Assembly (NCBI GenBank): GCA_037308085.1
Contig: CP147779.1
Location: 2,144,001 to 2,208,000, forward strand
Length of the DNA stretch: 64,000 nucleotides
Source: Promethearchaeati archaeon SRVP18_Atabeyarchaeia-1
Lineage (GTDB): Archaea; Asgardarchaeota; Atabeyarchaeia; Atabeyarchaeales; Atabeyarchaeaceae
Direction of reading: 5' to 3'
Shown: piece after piece, positions 10,391 to 36,343 of the stretch
Numbering within the stretch: the first letter of the stretch is position 1
Layout of the letters: the number at the start of each line of letters is the position of its first letter
The notes under the pieces: generated by a model
Seen by the model: the letters and a program-made list of their open reading frames with translations, nothing else
What the model was told of the DNA's origin: nothing
The model's database searches: none
Position numbers and translations under genes: made by a program

Positions 10391-10984
10391 TCACACGTAG
10401 TCTTCAACATTCAGGTATTGACTGCACAGCGGGCAAGCCTTCTTTTTTCTGAGCCACGCGACGAGATGGCCTCTGTGCGCCAGCCTCCCGCAGTGTAGGC
10501 ACCAAGCTACGTCATCCTTCTGGTTGAGCTCAAGGTTGCAGACAATACATTTTTCTTCCTGTGGCACGGTGGGAACCACGCGTTTCGACGTCCTTGACTT
10601 GGTCATGCCTCTCGCCTTATTCATGGTAGAGGCTTCTGCCTGTTGCCTGAGGGCTGCGCCGCACCTGGGGCAAAAATCTGGGTTGGCAATACTAATGCCA
10701 GTTTGGCAGATGGCACAGCGTGCAACTGGCGAGTAATACTGCGGGTGCTCACGCCTCCATCTCTCCTCTGCATCAGCTTCCGCAAGAGCGACTTCCCCAA
10801 GTTCTGTGGTGGACGGTGGTGATACGTCTACGTGTCCGACGACATGGAGGTACCCTCTGTAGAAGGTGTTACCTTCCTTGATCTCCTTTTGACGGACGAT
10901 GGCTCCACATTTAGAGCAGGTCTTCGATTTTCCGAGGGGCGGAGCTCCCCACATCCACGCCCCGCACCTTGGACACCTAGGCAT
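10391..10984 (-). CDS. Zinc-ribbon plus variant RING finger protein (soluble)
   Basis: Two CxxC...CxxC ribbons; C-terminal CIVC-x12-CLHC-x4-H-x2-H-x3-W-x6-CPLC. Confidence 0.8.
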   Translation of the reverse strand: MPRCPRCGAWMWGAPPLGKSKTCSKCGAIVRQKEIKEGNTFYRGYLHVVGHVDVSPPSTTELGEVALAEADAEERWRREHPQYYSPVARCAICQTGISIANPDFCPRCGAALRQQAEASTMNKARGMTKSRTSKRVVPTVPQEEKCIVCNLELNQKDDVAWCLHCGRLAHRGHLVAWLRKKKACPLCSQYLNVEDYV

Positions 10985-11190: not shown

Positions 11191-12123
11191 TCACGAGCCA
11201 ATCTCCTTCGGTTTAAGGTGCTGACCACATATGGGACATGTTCCTTTTACGTGAAGCCATTCAAGCATGTGCGTTTTGTGAGCGGGGTTGCCACAGAGCG
11301 GGCAGTAAACAATTTGGTCTGAAGGTTGCAGACCTATCTTGCAGACCATACATATCCCAGTGTCCTCCTTGGATGACCTAGTGTTTTCTTCGGTGATGCT
11401 GCTGGCCGCGGCAGGCTGTCTTGATAGGCTCGCTCCGCACGTTGAGCAGAACTTCCAGTCCGGCATGGTGATGGCGGCGCCACAGCTACTGCAGTACCTG
11501 AGAACGTTCTCGCTCTCAAGAGGCCTGCTTTGAATAGGCGACGAGACTCTTTCGTTGCCTGGCACGGGAGGAGCAGGCTGAACAGTTTCAGGACCTTGAT
11601 TAGTACCCTGTGTGGATGGCGCGCTTTGGCGAGGTCGACGCCTCGGGCGTGCGTCATAGATTTTGGAGAATATGGAAACCGAGGCTACAGATACTATGAA
11701 AATGATGAGTAGACTCACGGCGACATTCGGGGTCGTGACGATCTTGACCAACGCAGTCAGCGGGTTGGAACCCTGGTTCTGGATGACAAAGTGGTAGTTG
11801 GAATCTAATGGAATATTAACGCTGGTGCTGCCTGGCTGTGAATTTAGAAAGACGTAGCCAGAGTACGAAGACCCAAGCGTAAAGAGTTGATAGTTCACCT
11901 CATCGACCACGATAATAGTAACAAGGTAAGGCAACGTTGACCCGCTCACGCTGATAGTGACGGTGGCACCCCCTTCCAGGAACCGAGAGTACTCGCATTG
12001 CCCATGACCGTTGATTAGCACGGTCTCATCGGCAATGGTTGAGGGGGCCGCATAAAGTACCGTAGTTGATGCTATAGATATAGTCAAAACTAGCAGCAGT
12101 AGCGAGATCTTGCGACGCTGCAT
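11191..12123 (-). CDS. Receptor-like RING protein: signal peptide, beta-sandwich (GOLD-like) ectodomain, TM, zinc ribbon, RING
   Basis: Hydrophobic N-terminus; beta-rich domain ending YHFVIQN; TM VAVSLLIIFIVSVASVSIF; CSSCG..CSTCG; CMVC..CPLC..HKTH..W..CPIC. Confidence 0.8.
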   Translation of the reverse strand: MQRRKISLLLLVLTISIASTTVLYAAPSTIADETVLINGHGQCEYSRFLEGGATVTISVSGSTLPYLVTIIVVDEVNYQLFTLGSSYSGYVFLNSQPGSTSVNIPLDSNYHFVIQNQGSNPLTALVKIVTTPNVAVSLLIIFIVSVASVSIFSKIYDARPRRRPRQSAPSTQGTNQGPETVQPAPPVPGNERVSSPIQSRPLESENVLRYCSSCGAAITMPDWKFCSTCGASLSRQPAAASSITEENTRSSKEDTGICMVCKIGLQPSDQIVYCPLCGNPAHKTHMLEWLHVKGTCPICGQHLKPKEIGS

Positions 12124-14947: not shown

Positions 14948-15628
14948 TCATCCTATTTCCTGTTCATTTAGGTGTCGGGAGCACACAGGGCATTTTCCCC
15001 GAACATGAATCCACTCAAGCAAGTGCACTCTGTGAGCTGCGCTACCGCAGTGCGGACAATGGGCAATTTGGTCAGTGTCGAGTAGGCTGAATCCACAGAC
15101 CATGCATTGACCTGGATGGACTTCCCGAGCTGAAATACTGCTTCTCCCAGTTGGACTACCTGAATCCAGTTCAATTAGGCTCGCCCCGCAGTTTCTGCAG
15201 AATCTCCAATCTGACTTGCCAACGGTCGCGCCGCAGTACTTGCAGTACCCTAAGGCGCCGCGTTCCTGTGGCATGCTGGTCAGCGCGTCTACCCTGCTCT
15301 GCCGCTGGTCAGCGCGAGTGGGCCTTGCCTGCAATCCCCTGCGAGCGGTTTCCTCAGGCGAGGTCGGCGTGGGTCGCCTGACTATCTCCAACTTCCTTGA
15401 AGATCCTAGAATTGCGAAGAAGGATGGGAAGAGAAGCCAGAGGAACAACAATGATGCGTTTATGGCGATGAACACGAAGAGCCCGCAGAATAGGATGGCA
15501 AGGGCAAACGGTGCTGCGCCCCCAGATGCTGAGCATCGGAGTGTGGCGTGACACCTTGAGCAGGAGAAGTCTTCGTAGCGTCTCGCCCTCACAGCTATCC
15601 AGTTGCCGCAGTTTGGGCATCTTGGCAT
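14948..15628 (-). CDS. Zinc ribbon, two TM, zinc ribbon, variant RING protein
   Basis: CPNC..CSRC; hydrophobic hairpin; CKYC..CRNC; CMVC..CPHC..HRVH..W..CPVC. Confidence 0.8.
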   Translation of the reverse strand: MPRCPNCGNWIAVRARRYEDFSCSRCHATLRCSASGGAAPFALAILFCGLFVFIAINASLLFLWLLFPSFFAILGSSRKLEIVRRPTPTSPEETARRGLQARPTRADQRQSRVDALTSMPQERGALGYCKYCGATVGKSDWRFCRNCGASLIELDSGSPTGRSSISAREVHPGQCMVCGFSLLDTDQIAHCPHCGSAAHRVHLLEWIHVRGKCPVCSRHLNEQEIG

Positions 15629-25534: not shown

Positions 25535-26284
25535 TTACGTGTAATACTCCTCGCTGAGTCCTTCTCCGCAGGCTGGGCAACTCTTCCTTTCACGGATCCA
25601 TCCAATAAGATCGGCTCTATGTGCTAGCCTGCCGCAGTGCGGGCACCAAACTACATCATCTCTCTGTTTAAGCTCCAGGCCACACACCATGCATTTCTCC
25701 GTCTCCTGCGTCTGCGCCACGAGTGTTTGCCTTGATTTCCCCTTTTCTTCCATTTGCTGTGGTTCAGCTCGGCCAGCTCCGGCCTGCAGTTTTGACCCGC
25801 AGTGGTAGCAGAACTTCGCGCCTGCTGGGGCTACCGTAGCATGACAGTGTGGGCAGGCTGCTTGTTCGAAGCCATTTCTCACGGAGATCTTTGAAGGCCC
25901 CCTCTGAGTTTAGGTTGGTCCCTCTTGATCCGCTTCTTGTCTCGCAGTTTCCTCAAGGCGATCCGCGTAGAGAGGTCGGTACGAGTCATCCTTTGGCTCC
26001 TCCTCATCCTCGTCCTCATTATCCTCGGTCTCGGGTAGAGTTGCTTCACCCAGCTCTCGGCTCGGTGTCTGCGGCACGATCTCATCGGACCTGTAGGAAG
26101 GATCTCTTACGTAAGTGCTGTGTCGCGACGCGCGCGGGCAGTCAACAACTTCCACCGAATTAAGGAAGAATCCACCCAGGCTCGCCTTCCTCTCCAGTAT
26201 TGCTCCGCAGCCAGGACAAACCACCTCCTGAGAATAACGCGTGGGATGCCAGAGCCAGATCCCACAGTTCGGACACCTAGCCAT
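25535..26284 (-). pseudogene. Zinc ribbon, acidic linker, zinc ribbon, variant RING gene split by one in-frame TAA
   Basis: ORFs 25910-26284 and 25535-25882 share a frame (EGPT*TQRGPSKISVRNG). Same layout as 32431-33108. Confidence 0.75.
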
Positions 26285-26342: not shown

Positions 26343-27143
26343 TTATATTCCTTCAACGTAATGCTCATCAAGATGCTTCTCGCAGACCGGGCAGTAGTCA
26401 TGAGTGTGCAACCATTCCAGCATGTGTTCCCTGTGTGCTGGACTTCCGCAGTGGGGGCAAAACACCACCTCATCCGCCTTGGAGATAGCAAGATTGCATA
26501 CGATGCACTTCCCAGCAGAACCGGAGGCTGCAGATATACTTGTCAGCGATCCCACTTCCACATATTGCTCCAAGTCTCCAACTGAAGTTCCTCGGCCACG
26601 AGCGAATATCGCCACGAAAACAATCATAATGAATATCATAAAAAAGCCAGGAACAATCAGGAGCGGTGCCAGAAACGAAGAGCCCCCCATAAATGACATC
26701 GGGCCGACGAATAAGAATATGACGATGAACCCGAAGAAGATGCAAAAGAATACTGGTATGAGGAGAGCTGCGCCCGAGGCTCCCCTTCCCGAGGGATGTA
26801 TTTCGCCAGTCTCATCGCAAGCTAGCCTCTTAACGTCAACTGATTCAGGTAGATTGCTGCCTGCTTTCCACACTCTCGCTCTGCCCCAGATGGTGACATT
26901 GTTACCGGGCATGATTCCAATGTTTCGGGTCTGCATATCTATAAGGCAGGTTACGGGTTTCCCTCCGATTCTCACAGTTATGGCCCCGACCTGCGATATC
27001 CAGCTAGATACCGATCCCGCGGTGGAGCCGCCTGCATAGCCCCTTACGTGTGTTTCAGGGTTCAGGCGAACTTCAGTTACCTCACCGCTAAACTTCACTA
27101 GCTCAGGCCGAGTAGCAGTATTGCTTCTTGAAGCTGGCGGCAT
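26343..27143 (-). CDS. OB-fold-like domain, two TM, variant RING protein
   Basis: Beta-rich N-terminus (FSGEVTEV..GNNVTIWG); two TM helices; CIVC..CPHC..HREH..W..CPVC. Confidence 0.78.
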   Translation of the reverse strand: MPPASRSNTATRPELVKFSGEVTEVRLNPETHVRGYAGGSTAGSVSSWISQVGAITVRIGGKPVTCLIDMQTRNIGIMPGNNVTIWGRARVWKAGSNLPESVDVKRLACDETGEIHPSGRGASGAALLIPVFFCIFFGFIVIFLFVGPMSFMGGSSFLAPLLIVPGFFMIFIMIVFVAIFARGRGTSVGDLEQYVEVGSLTSISAASGSAGKCIVCNLAISKADEVVFCPHCGSPAHREHMLEWLHTHDYCPVCEKHLDEHYVEGI

Positions 27144-29231: not shown

Positions 29232-29360
29232 GGTTCTGTTATCTCTGCGGTTGATAACCGTTTGGGTTAACTTCTCCGCTCTGGCTCACCGCCTTATTTA
29301 GGGGTCGGATCACGGCTACATGTGCGGGGCGATCCAGCCTGAACCGCAGGCTTTCATCTT
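29232..29360 (-). ncRNA. Putative reRNA/omegaRNA scaffold overlapping the tnpB 3' end
   Basis: Hairpin AGCCTG-CGGTT-CAGGCT (29352-29336), whose GGTTC is complementary to the terminal GAACC; homologous to the MITE interior. 5' boundary approximate. Confidence 0.6.
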
Positions 29361-30465
29361 GGGTTTTGAGCAGGTTTAAGCAGGCGTTTACATGTCGATC
29401 TGTTCCGCACCATCCTAGGGTTTTCGCTTTCGGGTCTTGCATGATGCACCCACACACCGCGCAAATCCTAGAAGTGTTCCACGGACTGACTTTGACGGTT
29501 TGGACTCCCGCCCAGAGAGCCTTGTACTCGATGAAGCCCTGCAGCTTGCGGAAGCTCCACGAGTTCAACCTCCGCTTCAGTTTCCTGGAGTGTTTGCTTA
29601 TCTTCTGAATCCTCCCGTTGAAGCTGTTGACGCCCAAGACCTTCCTGTTAATCGCCCTGCGGATATGTCTAAGATCCTCGAGGATAATGCCTTGCTCCCT
29701 GGCTTTTGCTTGTCTAACTATCGCTGAACTCACCTGGTGCAGGACTGTGTTGACCTTGTTGTTCTGGTTGGTGAACCATCTTCTCTGAATCTTCTTGGCT
29801 ACCCGCTTGTCCTTAGCGTACTTGGCTTGAACCTTTCGTACACGCTCGAAGTATCCGTGCCTCGCCTCTGAAACCCTCTACAGATCGTGGCTTTCAATAG
29901 TTAGCTGTCCATCTTCTTTTGCGCTTGCTCCGTCCAACGAGCGTTCATTCGTGTCGTACGCGATGTAACCCTTTGGTTCGGCGACCTCAGCGGTCTTCGA
30001 GAAAACCAGCGAAACCGTGCAGGCAGCCAAGGACACTGAACCCAACTTGAGCGCGGCATCCGATAGGAACTGCGCAGCCCTCTTATGCAGGGGAACGTAG
30101 AAGTACTCTCTGGGCTTGATCGGTATTCTCAGTTTGCCGTCAACGAATCTGTAGGCCTGGTTTCCCAGTTTGGCCGTGAGTTTCTTGGCCCTCGGCGCTC
30201 TAACAATCCGGCGCCTTCTTTTCGCTTTCCGGTAGTTCTTCAGGATGGCGGTGGCAGCCTCGATGGCTGAGAGGCTTTACCAGGTGTGGAGACCGAAGCC
30301 GCTTAGCTGGTCGTACGTCTCGCTCTGCAGGCTGAGCCTGGAAGTTGCATTCCTCTCCAGGCCGACGCGGATGCAGTGGTTAACCATGGTTCTGAAGGTT
30401 TCAAGGAGGCTGAGAACACCACTTGTAGGCTCGTATGGTACCTGCACCGCTTTAACTGCCTGCAT
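29239..30465 (-). pseudogene. tnpB: TnpB/Cas12f-like RNA-guided nuclease (408 codons, two in-frame stops)
   Basis: Single frame from ATG 30465, with stops TAA 30277-30279 and TAG 29878-29880. RuvC-I YIAYDTNERS, RuvC-II IILEDL, WSFRKLQGFIEYKA, NTSRICAVCG, DRHVNACLNL. Confidence 0.92.
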
Positions 30466-31387: not shown

Positions 31388-32368
31388 CTAAGTATTCTTT
31401 TTCGATGCAGTTCGGGTATTGGCTGAGTGCATCTCGCTCAGTTCAAAGATCATGTCGGCGTATTCCTGAATGAGCCGGCTTCTGTAGATTCTCTGTAACC
31501 ATTTCCTGGGTATATCTTCCAAGCCGTAGAATGCACCCGCTAGTTGCCCGTATACGGCGCCAGTCGTGTCCGCGTCGTCACCGAGGTTCACAGCAAGTAG
31601 GCAACCCTCTTGGAAGGAACTGCTCTTGTGGAAAGCCCAGAGTGCCGCCTCAAGAGACTCGACTACGTACCCACTGCCCTTGATCTCTGGTGGCTCCTTT
31701 CGCTTGAAGCTTCCTCTGGCAACAGCGCTTATCCTTGGACAGAGCTCGTTCCTCTCCCAGTAGCGGGGCGATGGGGAGTAGCATGCTGAAAGTAGTGCCT
31801 CCTTCTGGACGCCACTCGCTGCGCCACAGATGAGTCCTCCGAAATACCTGCAGGCATCGATAGCTTCCCTCACCTGGTGGGTCGTTCGTGAGCTTTCGCC
31901 AGACTTCTCGATTGCTTCAACGGGGTCTTGCGCGTAAAAGAGGGGGACGGGTGCGAGTCGCATGAGGGAGCCATTGCCCGCGCTTTGCTCATCGTCTGGT
32001 CCACAATACGCCCGAGGATTCCTCTCGAAGCTTTGTAGCGCTGCTCGAACGACGTTGCCCACATCAAAGGATTTTCCAGTGCTGCTGAGATGCCCTTCCC
32101 TGTACCAGCTGATGTATCTTCTCAGTTGATCCATGAGGTCAAAGCCTCTGCAGTTGATCAGGCTTTCTGCTAGGCAAAGGGCCATTGATGTATCATCGGT
32201 CCACTGTCCAGGTCGTAGGTGAAAAAATCCTCCTCCGACAATGTCCCTGACCGGAGGGAATGTTCCGGGGGACTTGAACTCTACTGTGGCGCCAAGGGCA
32301 TCACCCACTGCCAATCCCAGGAGGCTCCCCCTGTAGCGCTGAACCCTCTTCATCGTATCTAGCTCCAC
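31388..32368 (-). CDS. ADP-ribosylglycohydrolase (DraG/ARH family)
   Basis: [47 protein letters not shown]. Confidence 0.95.
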
Positions 32369-32430: not shown

Positions 32431-33108
32431 CTACTGCTGCAGCTCTTGTTGGGTTGTTTTCTGTTTGCATGCTGGGCAGTATCCCTTGTCGCGTACCCAT
32501 TGCAGGAAATGCGTTCTATGTGCGAGGCGCCCGCAGTGAGGGCAGCGTATCGCTACGTCACCGTCCCTGAAGTTCGCGTCGCAGACCATGCAATGCTCCG
32601 CCTGCTCATCCAAGTCCAAGAGGCTCTCACCCTTTGACCCACGTCTTAGGTTCGCGCCGCAGGCTGTGCAGAAGTTGGCGTTCGGATGCATGTTTATTGC
32701 TCCACAGGCGTTGCACATTTTCCAGCTCACCTTGAGAGGCTTCGAGTAGGGCACCTCTGTCGTGGATTCAGCATTCTCTGCTGGACTCACGCTCTGTGAG
32801 GCTTCTTCTTGCGGAGTCTCAGCCTGGTCTTGGCGGTCGCGCATCCACCTGCTCCTTGCTTCATCCTCGCTCAAGTCGACTTCTCCAGGTTCGATTTGGG
32901 GTTCATTCCACTCTTCTTGATCAATTGTTGTGGTTTCTCCAAGGACTTTTCCCCTTATGCCATGCTTCAGCTTCACGCCAGCCCCACAGTGAGGGCAGTA
33001 GATCACTTCTTCGGGGGTTGGCAGTACTATTTTCCCCCCACACTTCGGGCAATGCTGGTAGAACTCCTCGGTAGATGGCGGTACATGTCCGTGACCTAGG
33101 TACGGCAT
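32431..33108 (-). CDS. Zinc ribbon, acidic linker, zinc ribbon, variant RING protein
   Basis: CPKC..CPHC, CNAC..CTAC, CMVC..CPHC..HRTH..W..CPAC. Confidence 0.8.
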   Translation of the reverse strand: MPYLGHGHVPPSTEEFYQHCPKCGGKIVLPTPEEVIYCPHCGAGVKLKHGIRGKVLGETTTIDQEEWNEPQIEPGEVDLSEDEARSRWMRDRQDQAETPQEEASQSVSPAENAESTTEVPYSKPLKVSWKMCNACGAINMHPNANFCTACGANLRRGSKGESLLDLDEQAEHCMVCDANFRDGDVAIRCPHCGRLAHRTHFLQWVRDKGYCPACKQKTTQQELQQ

Positions 33109-33189: not shown

Positions 33190-34005
33190 CTATCCCTCGT
33201 TCAGGATGTCCAGTTCGCCTAGGCGCCTTCTACATGCCGGGCAGTATCCCCTGGCGCGCACCCAGTCGAGAAGATGATCCCTGTGGTAAGCTATTCCGCA
33301 ACGCGGGCACCGTGAGAAGGGCTCACCCTCCTCGAGTCGCAAGTTGCACACGGCGCACCTTTTCTCACTGGGGTCGGTAATTACTATGTAGTGCAAACTG
33401 TGCGGTGCGGTTGCGATAACGTCTGGCAAGATGTCAAGGTCCCCGCGTAGTTCTACGATTTCTGGCTGGATTGGCATAGGGTGTTGACCATACCAAACGG
33501 CGCCAAGCGCGATCAACAGGGAAGATAGCGTGATAACGACACCCTCCAACGGTACCCAATCGACCGCCCAAGCGGCCCTAATTCCGAGGGTCGTGTTCAC
33601 GTGGTTTGGATTCTCAGCGATAAAGAAGTACGTGCGGTTGGCTAGGATATGGTAATTGATGTTGAGGTCTGACACTACACTGAGGGACAGCAGATAGGAG
33701 TACCCCGGATCACCATTCACCATGAGATGGTAGTTGAGGGGATCCATGACGCGGAAGAAGATCTGCTCACCCGAACTTGAATTTAGCCCTCCGAGCACCC
33801 TCAAATCAATATTCAAGGTCCCCCCGGTTGGCAATGTCTGATTTTGAACGTACAGTCCATGGGGGGCTATGGTTACCGTGGCATCAATCGGTGTCTCCGG
33901 CGTAGCGACGTAGGCTACAAATCCCATGGAAGCGAGCAACAGGGGTATCAGCACGACTAACGCTACCTGGCTCCACTCGCCAAAATAAGCTGCCTCTCTC
34001 TGCAA
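33190..34005 (-). CDS. Receptor-like RING protein: TM/signal, GOLD-like ectodomain, TM, RING
   Basis: N-terminal hydrophobic helix; beta domain ending YFFIAEN; TM; CAVC..CPRC..HRDH..W..CPAC. Confidence 0.78.
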   Translation of the reverse strand: MQREAAYFGEWSQVALVVLIPLLLASMGFVAYVATPETPIDATVTIAPHGLYVQNQTLPTGGTLNIDLRVLGGLNSSSGEQIFFRVMDPLNYHLMVNGDPGYSYLLSLSVVSDLNINYHILANRTYFFIAENPNHVNTTLGIRAAWAVDWVPLEGVVITLSSLLIALGAVWYGQHPMPIQPEIVELRGDLDILPDVIATAPHSLHYIVITDPSEKRCAVCNLRLEEGEPFSRCPRCGIAYHRDHLLDWVRARGYCPACRRRLGELDILNEG

Positions 34006-34180: not shown

Positions 34181-36343
34181 CTAGTCCAGCTTCTTCTTGC
34201 CTGTTGGTTCTGGTTGGGGCTCGGTCTGCTTCTTGACCTCCGCTTCGTCCAGATGCCTACCACACGTTGGGCAGTAATCCTTCACGTGTAACCACTCCAG
34301 GAAGTCGTCCCTGTGAGCCAGACCACCGCAATAGGGACAGAAGAGGATCTCATCGCTATTCTCCAATCCTCTCTTGCAGACCATGCAAACCCCTGATCTA
34401 GGGCGCATCCCCGTCTTCCGACCTGCAACAGAGGACACCGCCAAGCTGCCTTTCACAGGCGCGCCGCAGTTCCAGCAGGTTTCGTCAGTTGATTTCAAAG
34501 AAGCGCCACAGCTCCGGCACCGCACGGAACGAATAGGGGCGATGCGTTCCCGTCTCTCTCCCAGCATTCCCGGTTGGCTTGAGGGAACTTCCGGCGGGCG
34601 GTAATTCGATCCACCCGTAGGTCTCCCGGTCCCGCCTCTGCTTGAAACTGCTAGCACGACGGCGAAAAAGAGAACAACGAACAGAATCACCACAGCGTAG
34701 AACTCCATAGGGGGATTGGGTTGATTCCCACCGCCAAAGTCCACCGTCACAGTAAGGAGGTAAGCTCCACTGCCATGGGATGAGTAGACCATAATGTACC
34801 AATCGCCGTAGTAGGGATTGGGATAGTTGACGTCTTCGTCGCCGCTTGCAGTTCCGCTCCAGTAGTAGGATAACGTTGTTGGGTATGATCCGCACGCCCC
34901 GTAGAGATCAAAGTCAGCGCCTGACGGGCAAGTAAGAACAGCGTGCATGTTCACAGCGCTATTGTAGAGATACATGTACCAGAGATCGTACTCGCCAGTT
35001 CCGCTCAGGTTGCCACTGACAGTGTAGCCATTATAGAGGGACTGCGGGGTGAGAGGGGCTCTCACTGTCACAGTCAGCCGATATGTCCCATTGCCATGGA
35101 GCGACTCGACCATGATGTACCAGGTGCCAGAGGAAGGATTGTTATATGTGGTGTTTTCGTCGCCGCTTGCAGTTCCGCTCCAGGCGTAGAATGTCGTTGT
35201 TGGGTAAGATCCATAGGCTCCATAGAGATTGAAATCCGCGTTTGCCGGGCAAGTTAGGACCGAGTGCATGCTCGTGGCTCCGTAGGCAACGTATATGTAC
35301 CACAAGGCATAGTCTCCATTTCCATTCAGGGTGCCCGTTGCAGTCATGCCGTTCGATAGGTACTGGAGGACGGGGGCGTATGCTACGTAGACGGTTAGTT
35401 GATAGGTGCCGTTTCCGCTGTACGAGAAGGGCATTATGTACCACGCGCCGGCACCAGGATAACTGTATATGACGTCCTCGTTACCAGCCTGGTTTCCACG
35501 CCAGTAGTAGCCCGTCAACGTTGGATATCCCCCGTTCATCCCGTAGAGATCGAAGTCGGCGCCAGAAGAACAAGTGAGAACAGCCCGCATACTCGTTGCC
35601 CCACCCAAGATATATATGTACCAGAGGTCAGAGTCGGCGGTGGCATTGAGGCTACTGGTTGCAGGAGTCCCACTCGTAAGTGGGAGTTGAGCGCTCGTGT
35701 ACAGTACGGTGACAGTCAGAAGATAGTTCCCTTTGGAGAGGTCGGAATAAGCCATGATGTACCATGTGCCAGCCGAAGGATTGTAGTAGCTCATATCCTC
35801 AGTGCTTCCATAATATGTGGCGCTCCAGCTGTATGATGTGGTGGTTGGATAGACCCCGACTTGACCGTACAGATAAACGTAATTGCCGGGGTTGCCTGTG
35901 ACGACGGCGCGCATGAACCTTGCTCCACCGGTGACGTTGATGTACCACATCTCCGAGTCTCCGGTGCCATTCAGAAACCCGATGCTTGATACTCCATTAG
36001 TAAGAGGCCGTACTGCATCGCTGCTTCTGTACTCCGAGGGACTCCTACTGGACGCGTACTTGCCCACGCGGTAGTCAGTTCCCAGTCTATTAGAATCGGT
36101 CCCTTTCCCTCCCGGCGTGGGCGTCGCAGTTCGAAGATGTGTGAGCGTCGGCAAAGAAACGTTTGGTGAGTGCGCCTGCGCCGGAGCTACGTCGCCAGCT
36201 CCGGTCAATGGGCTCTGGGTGCCACGGCTTGCCGACATCAACCCAGCAGACGGAGACAAAACGGTTAAGAACAGCAGTAGAGCGAGGAGTCCTTCCGCGA
36301 ATCTTAGCTCAAGTTTGCTCCTTGTATTCGCCCTACCGTTCAT
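34181..36343 (-). CDS. Receptor-like RING protein: signal peptide, four PPC domains, TM, zinc ribbon, RING
   Basis: Four ~105-aa repeats with ADFDLY..G.YPT and G.WYIMV (pre-peptidase C-terminal domain); TM FYAVVILFVVLFFAVVLAV; CRSC..CWNC; CMVC..CPYC..HRDD..W..CPTC. Confidence 0.85.
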   Translation of the reverse strand: MNGRANTRSKLELRFAEGLLALLLFLTVLSPSAGLMSASRGTQSPLTGAGDVAPAQAHSPNVSLPTLTHLRTATPTPGGKGTDSNRLGTDYRVGKYASSRSPSEYRSSDAVRPLTNGVSSIGFLNGTGDSEMWYINVTGGARFMRAVVTGNPGNYVYLYGQVGVYPTTTSYSWSATYYGSTEDMSYYNPSAGTWYIMAYSDLSKGNYLLTVTVLYTSAQLPLTSGTPATSSLNATADSDLWYIYILGGATSMRAVLTCSSGADFDLYGMNGGYPTLTGYYWRGNQAGNEDVIYSYPGAGAWYIMPFSYSGNGTYQLTVYVAYAPVLQYLSNGMTATGTLNGNGDYALWYIYVAYGATSMHSVLTCPANADFNLYGAYGSYPTTTFYAWSGTASGDENTTYNNPSSGTWYIMVESLHGNGTYRLTVTVRAPLTPQSLYNGYTVSGNLSGTGEYDLWYMYLYNSAVNMHAVLTCPSGADFDLYGACGSYPTTLSYYWSGTASGDEDVNYPNPYYGDWYIMVYSSHGSGAYLLTVTVDFGGGNQPNPPMEFYAVVILFVVLFFAVVLAVSSRGGTGRPTGGSNYRPPEVPSSQPGMLGERRERIAPIRSVRCRSCGASLKSTDETCWNCGAPVKGSLAVSSVAGRKTGMRPRSGVCMVCKRGLENSDEILFCPYCGGLAHRDDFLEWLHVKDYCPTCGRHLDEAEVKKQTEPQPEPTGKKKLD
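34740..36003 (-). repeat. Four tandem intragenic PPC-domain repeats
   Basis: Visible at protein and DNA level, e.g. TCGTCGCCGCTTGCAGTTCCGCTCCAG near 34836 and 35157. Confidence 0.85.

Follow-up and report, generated by a model that had tools for sequence, protein, structure and literature searches.

In this study we analysed a stretch of 64,000 nucleotides from the genome of the Asgard archaeon Candidatus Atabeyarchaeum deiterrae (Atabeyarchaeia-1; contig CP147779.1, positions 2,144,001 to 2,208,000 of the forward strand), hereafter called the window, which encodes a protein of 720 amino acids (P0001) that joins four PPC domains to a single transmembrane (TM) helix and a tail with a zinc ribbon and a RING finger. 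Based on computed evidence, i.e. its domain structure and topology, the homology and fold of the RING, the conservation of E2-contact residues, the co-occurrence with a cognate ubiquitin system and the breadth of the family, P0001 is predicted to be a membrane-anchored RING E3 ligase, which probably works with the E1, E2 and ubiquitin of the same genome and whose PPC array would provide localisation or specificity. The protein is the PPC-headed variant of a receptor-like class of Asgard RING proteins.

Asgard archaea possess ubiquitin, E1, E2 and RING proteins as well as ubiquitin-binding ESCRT-I/II proteins. The literature that we searched contained no account of receptor-like RING ligases in these organisms, which, given the limited search, is not proof of absence; in the main text of the Asgard preprint of Liu et al., none of the RING, U-box or ubiquitin-ligase terms that we looked for is present, and the paper describing the genome lists "RING finger domain" among the eukaryotic signature proteins without further analysis (PMC11291895).

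Domain structure, topology and integrity of the gene

The open reading frame (ORF) of P0001 begins with an ATG and is uninterrupted. The initial annotation had described a signal peptide, a spacer rich in Ser, Thr and Pro, four PPC repeats in the absence of a protease domain, one TM helix, a zinc ribbon and a RING, and this architecture was borne out in all its parts, the N-terminus being signal-peptide-like (Table 1). The PPC domain (PF04151) was identified by Pfam in four stretches with an E-value of 3.9e-16 and 60.1 bits (gathering cutoff 25.9), and the borders of the units were set by a profile hidden Markov model (HMM) that was built on the repeats of P0001 itself. Neither a peptidase domain nor a PA domain (PF02225) was found in P0001 in a Pfam scan with E-values up to 1. 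The AlphaFold2 (AF2) model of residues 105-545 displays four all-beta units with a mean predicted local distance difference test (pLDDT) score of 89.9. In Foldseek searches this ectodomain model was matched by the tandem collagen-binding domains of ColG, which are of the PPC type (E 2.5e-10), and also by the CUB arrays of cubilin and neuropilin, i.e. by tandem extracellular jelly-roll arrays. At the sequence level, the nearest relatives of the PPC units are Asgard proteins in which PPC is fused to caspase (C14), S8 or M14 peptidases or to CUB domains.

Table 1 Features of the P0001 gene and further RING genes. Positions refer to the window; aa, amino acid residues; KD, Kyte-Doolittle hydropathy.
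Feature	Position	Strand	Evidence
Whole gene P0001, 720 aa, PPC x4 - TM - zinc ribbon - RING	34181..36343	-	single ORF, Pfam
Signal-peptide-like N-terminus, aa 1-36: basic n-region, short hydrophobic core ~L19-L29, then SPSAG	36236..36343	-	hydropathy, charge counts
Low-complexity spacer, aa 37-112, 37% Ser/Thr/Pro	36008..36235	-	composition
PPC domain 1, aa 113-218	35690..36007	-	repeat HMM 160.8 bits; Pfam PPC best stretch 130-200; AF2 beta sandwich
PPC domain 2, aa 221-325	35369..35683	-	Pfam, repeat HMM, AF2
PPC domain 3, aa 328-434	35042..35362	-	Pfam, repeat HMM, AF2
PPC domain 4, aa 435-540	34724..35041	-	Pfam, repeat HMM, AF2
TM helix, aa ~546-568, basic flank C-terminal	34640..34708	-	KD peak 3.19, K/R counts
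Cytoplasmic juxtamembrane linker, aa 569-608, predicted disordered	34520..34639	-	tail alignment: basic residues after the TM helix, then variable
Zinc ribbon, aa 609-630; C609, C612, C623, C626	34454..34519	-	Pfam DZR / Zn_Ribbon_1 above cutoff
RING finger, aa 653-694, C-x2-C-x12-C-x2-C-x4-H-x2-D-x10-C-x2-C	34262..34387	-	Pfam, genome scan, family profile, AF2/Foldseek
P0002, next gene downstream, 271 aa, TM - small ectodomain - TM - RING paralogue	33190..34005	-	orthologue at the same place in contig L056
P0003, second gene downstream, 225 aa, soluble zinc ribbon - zinc ribbon - RING paralogue	32431..33108	-	
RING genes of the window, 42-residue finger	10391-10984, 11191-12123, 14948-15628, 25535-25882, 26343-27143, 32431-33108, 33190-34005, 34181-36343	all -	

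The hydropathy profile of P0001 contains only two peaks, which correspond to the N-terminus (residues ~17-36) and to the TM helix (residues ~546-568, KD 3.19). Four Lys or Arg residues are located within the first 16 positions, followed by a hydrophobic core of about 12 residues and SPSAG, as would be predicted for a signal peptide that is cleaved off. Lys and Arg are absent from the 15 residues that precede the TM helix, and three are present in the 15 that follow it. All of the 10 Cys residues in the C-terminal 152 residues belong to CxxC or zinc-finger motifs, and the RING begins 85 residues past the TM helix. Based on the two hydropathy peaks, the flanking charges (positive-inside rule) and the location of the tail cysteines in zinc motifs, P0001 is predicted to be a type-I single-pass protein with the PPC array outside and the zinc ribbon and RING in the cytoplasm; an extracellular RING, which had been named as a possible refutation of the receptor-like architecture, is not what these data predict. 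The ectodomain shows no significant enrichment in N-glycosylation sequons (8 vs 6.4 +/- 2.2 expected from shuffled sequences), so that sequons say nothing about its location.

The ORF might in principle be an assembly chimera or a decaying pseudogene, in which a secreted PPC protein has been joined to an unrelated zinc-finger gene. We regard this as extremely improbable, and no evidence in its favour was found. The window is located inside a single contig of 2,808,651 bp, which belongs to a complete, manually curated and long-read-checked genome (PMC11291895), and the ORF harbors no internal stop codon. In addition, Logan contigs from three runs of another wetland study match the gene at >=99% identity and bridge the region from PPC domain 4 via the TM helix to the zinc ribbon (X2, 34516-34749; X4, 34518-34778; X3, 34659-34954). 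The same layout, with two to five PPC units, is found in the proteins P0004, P0005, P0006, P0007 and P0010 from other metagenomes, and the nine homologues that we weighed against a chimera comprise P0004, P0005, P0007, P0010 and five tandem genes on a syntenic metagenome contig (L056). From the curated genome, the independent bridging contigs and the homologues with the same layout we conclude that the fusion is not an assembly artefact, which the initial annotation had listed as a possible objection.

The RING finger and the ubiquitin system of the genome

The eight ligands of the RING in P0001 (C653, C656, C669, C672, H677, D680, C691 and C694) follow a cross-brace spacing that is identical in all 28 paralogues of the genome and corresponds to the family pattern C-x2-C-x12-C-x2-C-x4-H-x2-(H/D/E)-x10-C-x2-C. 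A profile built on 87 tails, on which the column statistics given here are also based, matched RINGs of solved structure in the Protein Data Bank (PDB), namely RNF24 (7e-10), Arkadia (8e-8), ZNRF3 (1.7e-4) and RNF13 (4.5e-3), as well as RNF165, RNF126, EL5, RNF4, RNF38, gp78 and HRD1. In total, more than 30 RING E3 chains besides RNF24 were matched, and nothing else of note appeared beyond solved RING-H2 ligases. In the profile alignment, the second Cys of the CPxC knuckle is located at ligand 3 of the RING-H2 fingers and the first Cys replaces His4, a feature that also characterises the srfp E3 of Caldiarchaeum (PMC5654768).

The AF2 model of the tail reaches pLDDT values of 88-93 across the RING. 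In this predicted model, the RING superposes on the RINGs of RNF165, EL5, gp78, Rad18 and RNF13 at 1.2-3 Å according to Foldseek, with a root-mean-square deviation (rmsd) of 1.2-2.4 Å over 47-51 columns for RNF165, 1.8 Å at 36% identity for EL5 and 1.4 Å for Rad18; the complex of the RNF13 RING with E2~ubiquitin (5zbu) is among the matches. The zinc ribbon, whose four Cys are each conserved in >=97% of the tails, was modelled with moderate confidence and the linker between zinc ribbon and RING is disordered; in the model both look like two independent modules. The positions that contact the E2 in RING ligases are occupied by V655 (between the first two Cys ligands, C1 and C2), W684 (in the helix) and P692 (after ligand C7), and the corresponding columns contain Val or Ile in 100%, Trp, Tyr or Phe in 100% and Pro in 99% of the tails. 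In the srfp E3 of Caldiarchaeum, mutation of the equivalent residues I30 and W58 abolishes or impairs ubiquitylation (PMC5654768).

The top Foldseek E-values for the tail were obtained with subunits of IFT-A and GATOR2, which we rejected as fold matches due to TM-scores of 0.04-0.06 on the target and rmsd values of 9-12 Å. The regions that match the tandem of zinc ribbon and RING (model residues 596-720 of P0001) are the C-terminal zinc-finger regions of these subunits, and WDR19, WDR24 and WDR59 were weakly matched by the tail profile as well (E 0.003-0.02). That protocoatomer-type proteins end in a similar zinc-finger tandem is a hint only, given the poor TM-scores.

The genome encodes a complete ubiquitin-ESCRT-I locus at C1:327-334 kb, which consists of genes for Vps28, UEV-Vps23 (UQ_con and Vps23_core), a JAB/MPN protease (JAB), a RING protein of 83 amino acids, ubiquitin, an E2 with an HPN motif and a catalytic Cys, and an E1. 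The encoded ubiquitin ends with GG-ND, i.e. as a pro-form that needs processing, and a weak ubiquitin-like match was noted in the reading frame of the E1. The E2 gene occupies C1:331842-332210 and the E1 gene C1:332.3-333.3 kb. The RING of this operon aligns with that of P0001 without gaps and in the same 42-residue spacing, with 19 of the 42 residues being identical, compared to 25-26 of 42 for other membrane-anchored paralogues. The tail of P0001 therefore holds a genuine RING of the kind encoded in archaeal ubiquitin operons, and since the ubiquitin operon of the same genome contains a RING of this type as well, P0001 is probably a membrane-anchored ubiquitin ligase.

Across 151 Asgard genomes, the tail profile matched 111, with 1-30 matches per genome; the Atabeyarchaeum genome ranks near the top with 29 matches. 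An E2 of the UQ_con type was identified by Pfam in 109 of the 151 genomes, and 109 of the 111 RING-positive genomes contain both, while the two genomes with a RING only are both less than 80% complete. At the level of families, the distributions of tail and E2 agree almost completely: f5, f6 (0/26), f11, f16 (0/5), f22 and f26 lack the one as well as the other, and f19 is mixed. This co-occurrence is what a functional link would predict, and it is to be read as a pattern and not as a statistic, since related genomes are not independent. The link to ubiquitin that had been proposed initially is thereby supported by genome evidence, namely by the locus with ubiquitin, E1, E2, JAB and RING, by the co-occurrence of RING and E2 and by the profile homology to RING-H2 E3s including ZNRF3 and RNF13.

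Prok-RING families were reportedly defined by Burroughs et al. in 2011. The RING of P0001 is of the same subtype as the RINGs of the srfp E3s (Caldiarchaeum subterraneum, PMC5654768; Helarchaeial RING E3, bioRxiv 10.1101/2023.07.25.550441; Prok-RING_1, PF14446), with which it shares a CxxC knuckle that provides ligands 3 and 4, a hydrophobic residue in the C1-C2 interval, the Trp in the helix and the CPxC motif; in the Caldiarchaeum protein, C3 and H4 are shifted by two residues and there is an additional Cys (PMC5654768). However, srfp proteins are soluble, comprise about 80-100 amino acids and are encoded in the ubiquitin operon, whereas P0001 is membrane-anchored, carries an ectodomain of 500 amino acids and an additional zinc ribbon and differs from srfp at ligand 6, which is Asp, and by a Gly at the position of srfp R69. 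The cascade of E1, E2 and RING has been reconstituted for an archaeal system (PMC5654768) and, in vitro, for an Asgard system, and the Helarchaeial RING E3 of the latter study binds a UEV domain directly (bioRxiv 10.1101/2023.07.25.550441).

The initial annotation had further drawn an analogy to the eukaryotic PA-TM-RING ligases, which holds for the type-I layout with one TM helix and a cytosolic C-terminal RING and fails for the ectodomain. Like RNF13, RNF128/GRAIL, RNF167 and plant RMR proteins as well as ZNRF3/RNF43, P0001 is predicted to combine a signal peptide, a beta-rich outer or luminal binding domain, a single TM helix and a cytosolic finger of the RING-H2 type. Unlike in these proteins, the ectodomain consists of four PPC jelly rolls and not of a PA domain, the ligand pattern is C4-H-(H/D)-C2 instead of C3H2C3, and a zinc ribbon precedes the RING. 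Since PPC is not PA, P0001 falls outside the PA-TM-RING family, and its likeness to these ligases is one of architecture and not of orthology. With ColG s3a-s3b (PDB 5iku) and the PPC or collagen-binding domains of secreted peptidases, P0001 has the tandem PPC jelly rolls in common; in contrast to such proteins it contains no peptidase, and its array is anchored in the membrane and connected to a RING on the cytoplasmic side.

The wider family and the local neighbourhood

The family was defined by an exhaustive phmmer search with the tail of P0001, which yielded 753 clusters at E-values up to 1e-3 and 152 at E-values up to 1e-10, whereas a region-restricted word-index search returned only the three closest relatives. 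Among the best 150 of at least 753 clusters, 145 contain the RING pattern, which in 142 cases is located <=40 residues from the C-terminus. In 104 of these 145 members the RING is preceded by at least one TM helix, i.e. by a membrane anchor, and 34 of them possess an extracytoplasmic segment of >=150 residues. Among the ectodomains of 31 large members are FG-GAP propellers (8), PPC (6), CarboxypepD_reg (6), fn3 (3) and PEGA domains. The Asgard family presents itself as a constant chassis of TM helix, zinc ribbon and RING with interchangeable ectodomains.

The same diversity is apparent within the genome, in which 28 proteins carry the 42-residue RING; eight of them are encoded in the window, five with TM helices and three soluble. 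Paralogues encoded elsewhere in the genome include a protein of 827 amino acids with SBP_bac_5 (E 7e-41), TM helix, zinc ribbon and RING (L003, C1:1849898-1852381), which links the ligand-binding fold of periplasmic binding proteins to the same tail. Further paralogues combine FG-GAP, TM helix and RING (691 amino acids), an unassigned ectodomain with TM helix, zinc ribbon and RING (726 amino acids), or CarboxypepD_reg with TM helix, zinc ribbon and RING (416 amino acids). A soluble paralogue of 659 amino acids (L006, C1:1675269-1677248) contains HEAT repeats, a weak PCI match and a C-terminal RING and resembles a scaffold-type E3. In addition, three tandem genes (L008, C1:2026880-2031514) encode proteins of 444, 464 and 433 amino acids, in which arrestin_N (E down to 1.5e-24) is followed by a zinc ribbon and a RING, so that a cargo-adaptor fold and a ligase finger are present in one chain. 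Eukaryotic alpha-arrestins recruit a separate HECT ligase. Together with the ESCRT-linked ubiquitin locus, the arrestin fusions point to membrane-cargo biology.

The five tandem genes on the 73-kb contig L056, which is syntenic with the window, all encode PPC - TM - zinc ribbon - RING proteins (494, 652, 511, 801 and 489 amino acids) and are accompanied by an orthologue of P0002, whereas at the Atabeyarchaeum locus a single PPC-RING gene is found together with P0002 and the soluble P0003. Both loci share lactamase_B, nitroreductase, Bax1-I and LigB genes on one side and ADP-ribosylglycohydrolase, a 164-amino-acid ORF and saccharopine dehydrogenase on the other. The flanking orthologues are 71-88% identical, compared to at best 54-56% for the PPC-RING genes and 39% for P0002, and the tail alone is 67-69% identical. 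According to the repeat HMM, the paralogues have positionally orthologous PPC units 1 and 2, and membrane-proximal units have been gained and lost. Since the PPC-RING genes diverge much faster than their neighbours and vary in copy number, we conclude that the ectodomain genes are fast-evolving and copy-number-variable, which is what one would expect of recognition proteins exposed on the cell surface.

Immediately downstream of the RING cluster and on the same strand, in the window as well as in L056, an ADP-ribosylglycohydrolase is encoded (31388-32368 (-); Pfam E 1e-80), which has its counterpart with 73% identity at L056:14882-15823; its location beside the RING genes may reflect only the synteny between close relatives. 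A 164-amino-acid ORF at 29239-29733 (-) with a Cas12f1/TnpB-like TNB zinc finger (E 3e-13) probably represents a fragment of TnpB and is without a counterpart in L056. No tRNA and no Rfam family was found within the window. In the only metatranscriptome run that contains part of this region, two contigs mapped to P0002 (33370-33815) and none to the P0001 gene, which, as they stem from a small run, has no bearing on expression.

Mechanism, alternative explanations and meaning

If P0001 acts as a ligase, its RING would recruit the ubiquitin-charged UQ_con-type E2 of the genome via the conserved Val between C1 and C2, the Trp in the helix and the Pro after C7, and would promote the transfer of ubiquitin to lysine residues, either in its own tail or in the cytoplasmic portions of membrane proteins close by. 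Proteins marked in this way could then be read by the ubiquitin-binding ESCRT-I proteins (UEV-Vps23 and Vps28) that are encoded beside the ubiquitin operon. The PPC array might bind a polymer outside the cell, a partner on the surface or a ligand and thereby set the specificity or localisation of the ligase. We infer these steps, i.e. E2 binding, catalysis, the substrates, the hand-over to ESCRT and a control by extracellular binding, from the relationships described above, and a coupling of extracellular binding to ligase activity would be purely conjectural.

Several observations weigh against P0001 being such a ligase. Its gene is located 1.8 Mb away from the ubiquitin operon. The RING taken alone stays below the Pfam cutoffs, with 24.7 vs 29.1 bits for Prok-RING_1 and 21.1 vs 27.3 bits for zf-RING_2, and the 31.9 bits that it reaches in the genome-wide scan are summed with its neighbours in frame. 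Ligand 6 is Asp680, in a family with His in 90% and Asp or Glu in 10% of the tails, and the position directly after the eighth ligand (C8), i.e. that of the canonical linchpin Arg or Lys, is occupied by G695, followed by R696; in the family, Gly is found at the first position in 53%, a basic residue at the second in 54% and at the third in 87% of the tails. Finally, in the two genomes that are closest among those sampled, G023 of the same genus (94% complete) and G012 of the same family, only the tail was matched and an orthologue with PPC domains was not found. The Asp at ligand 6, the Gly at the linchpin position and the scores below the Pfam thresholds would also fit a tail that is a non-catalytic binuclear zinc finger. 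Such a tail would not activate an E2 but would serve as an adaptor, linking the surface protein to a partner in the cytoplasm, e.g. to the UEV domain of Vps23, to the cytoskeleton or to another RING; the UEV binding of the Helarchaeial RING E3 (bioRxiv 10.1101/2023.07.25.550441) is in line with this explanation. Nevertheless, we consider such an adaptor unlikely, since the operon RING exhibits the same linchpin shift (Asn, then Arg), the three hydrophobic E2-contact positions are conserved to 99-100%, family and E2 co-occur in 109 of the 111 genomes and all of the nearest relatives with solved structures are active RING-H2 E3s.

The peptidase and CUB fusions of the nearest PPC relatives, the resemblance of the fold to the collagen-binding tandem domains of ColG and to CUB arrays, and the fast evolution and variable repeat number of the ectodomain could alternatively indicate that P0001 is mainly structural or adhesive. 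Its PPC array would then bind polymers for the secreted PPC-caspase and PPC-S8 peptidases, which are numerous in Asgard archaea, and its tail would only control the stability or anchoring of P0001 itself, P0001 being a substrate of the ubiquitin system and not a ligase for other proteins. We judge this to be quite unlikely, because it leaves unexplained that the same tail is found on unrelated ectodomains and on soluble arrestin and HEAT modules; moreover, it is compatible with autoubiquitylation, which is itself an E3 activity.

With a membrane-anchored ligase as the preferred explanation, P0001 could, in a more far-reaching version that we put forward tentatively and hold to be doubtful, be a true receptor ligase, in which an extracellular polymer, a neighbouring cell or a virus on the fast-evolving PPC array clusters the protein and switches on the RING, so that membrane proteins are ubiquitylated for ESCRT-I. 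If so, it would represent a prokaryotic forerunner of ubiquitin-dependent receptor down-regulation or of surface surveillance, with the arrestin-RING fusions as soluble counterparts.

Public annotation hides the proteins with RING tails. The relatives P0004, P0007, P0132, P0159 and P0183 carry misleading source names, such as "predicted amidophosphoribosyltransferase", "outer membrane protein assembly factor BamB" and "RNA-binding Zn-ribbon protein", and RING appears in none of the names seen for these five. This large and diverse group of membrane-anchored RING proteins with receptor-like ectodomains comprises at least 753 clusters, and the Atabeyarchaeum genome alone encodes 28 RING proteins, among them fusions to SBP, propeller, PPC and arrestin domains; the group provides concrete candidates for ligases that select membrane cargo. 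If its members are active, the control of surface proteins by ubiquitin would be older than the eukaryotes.

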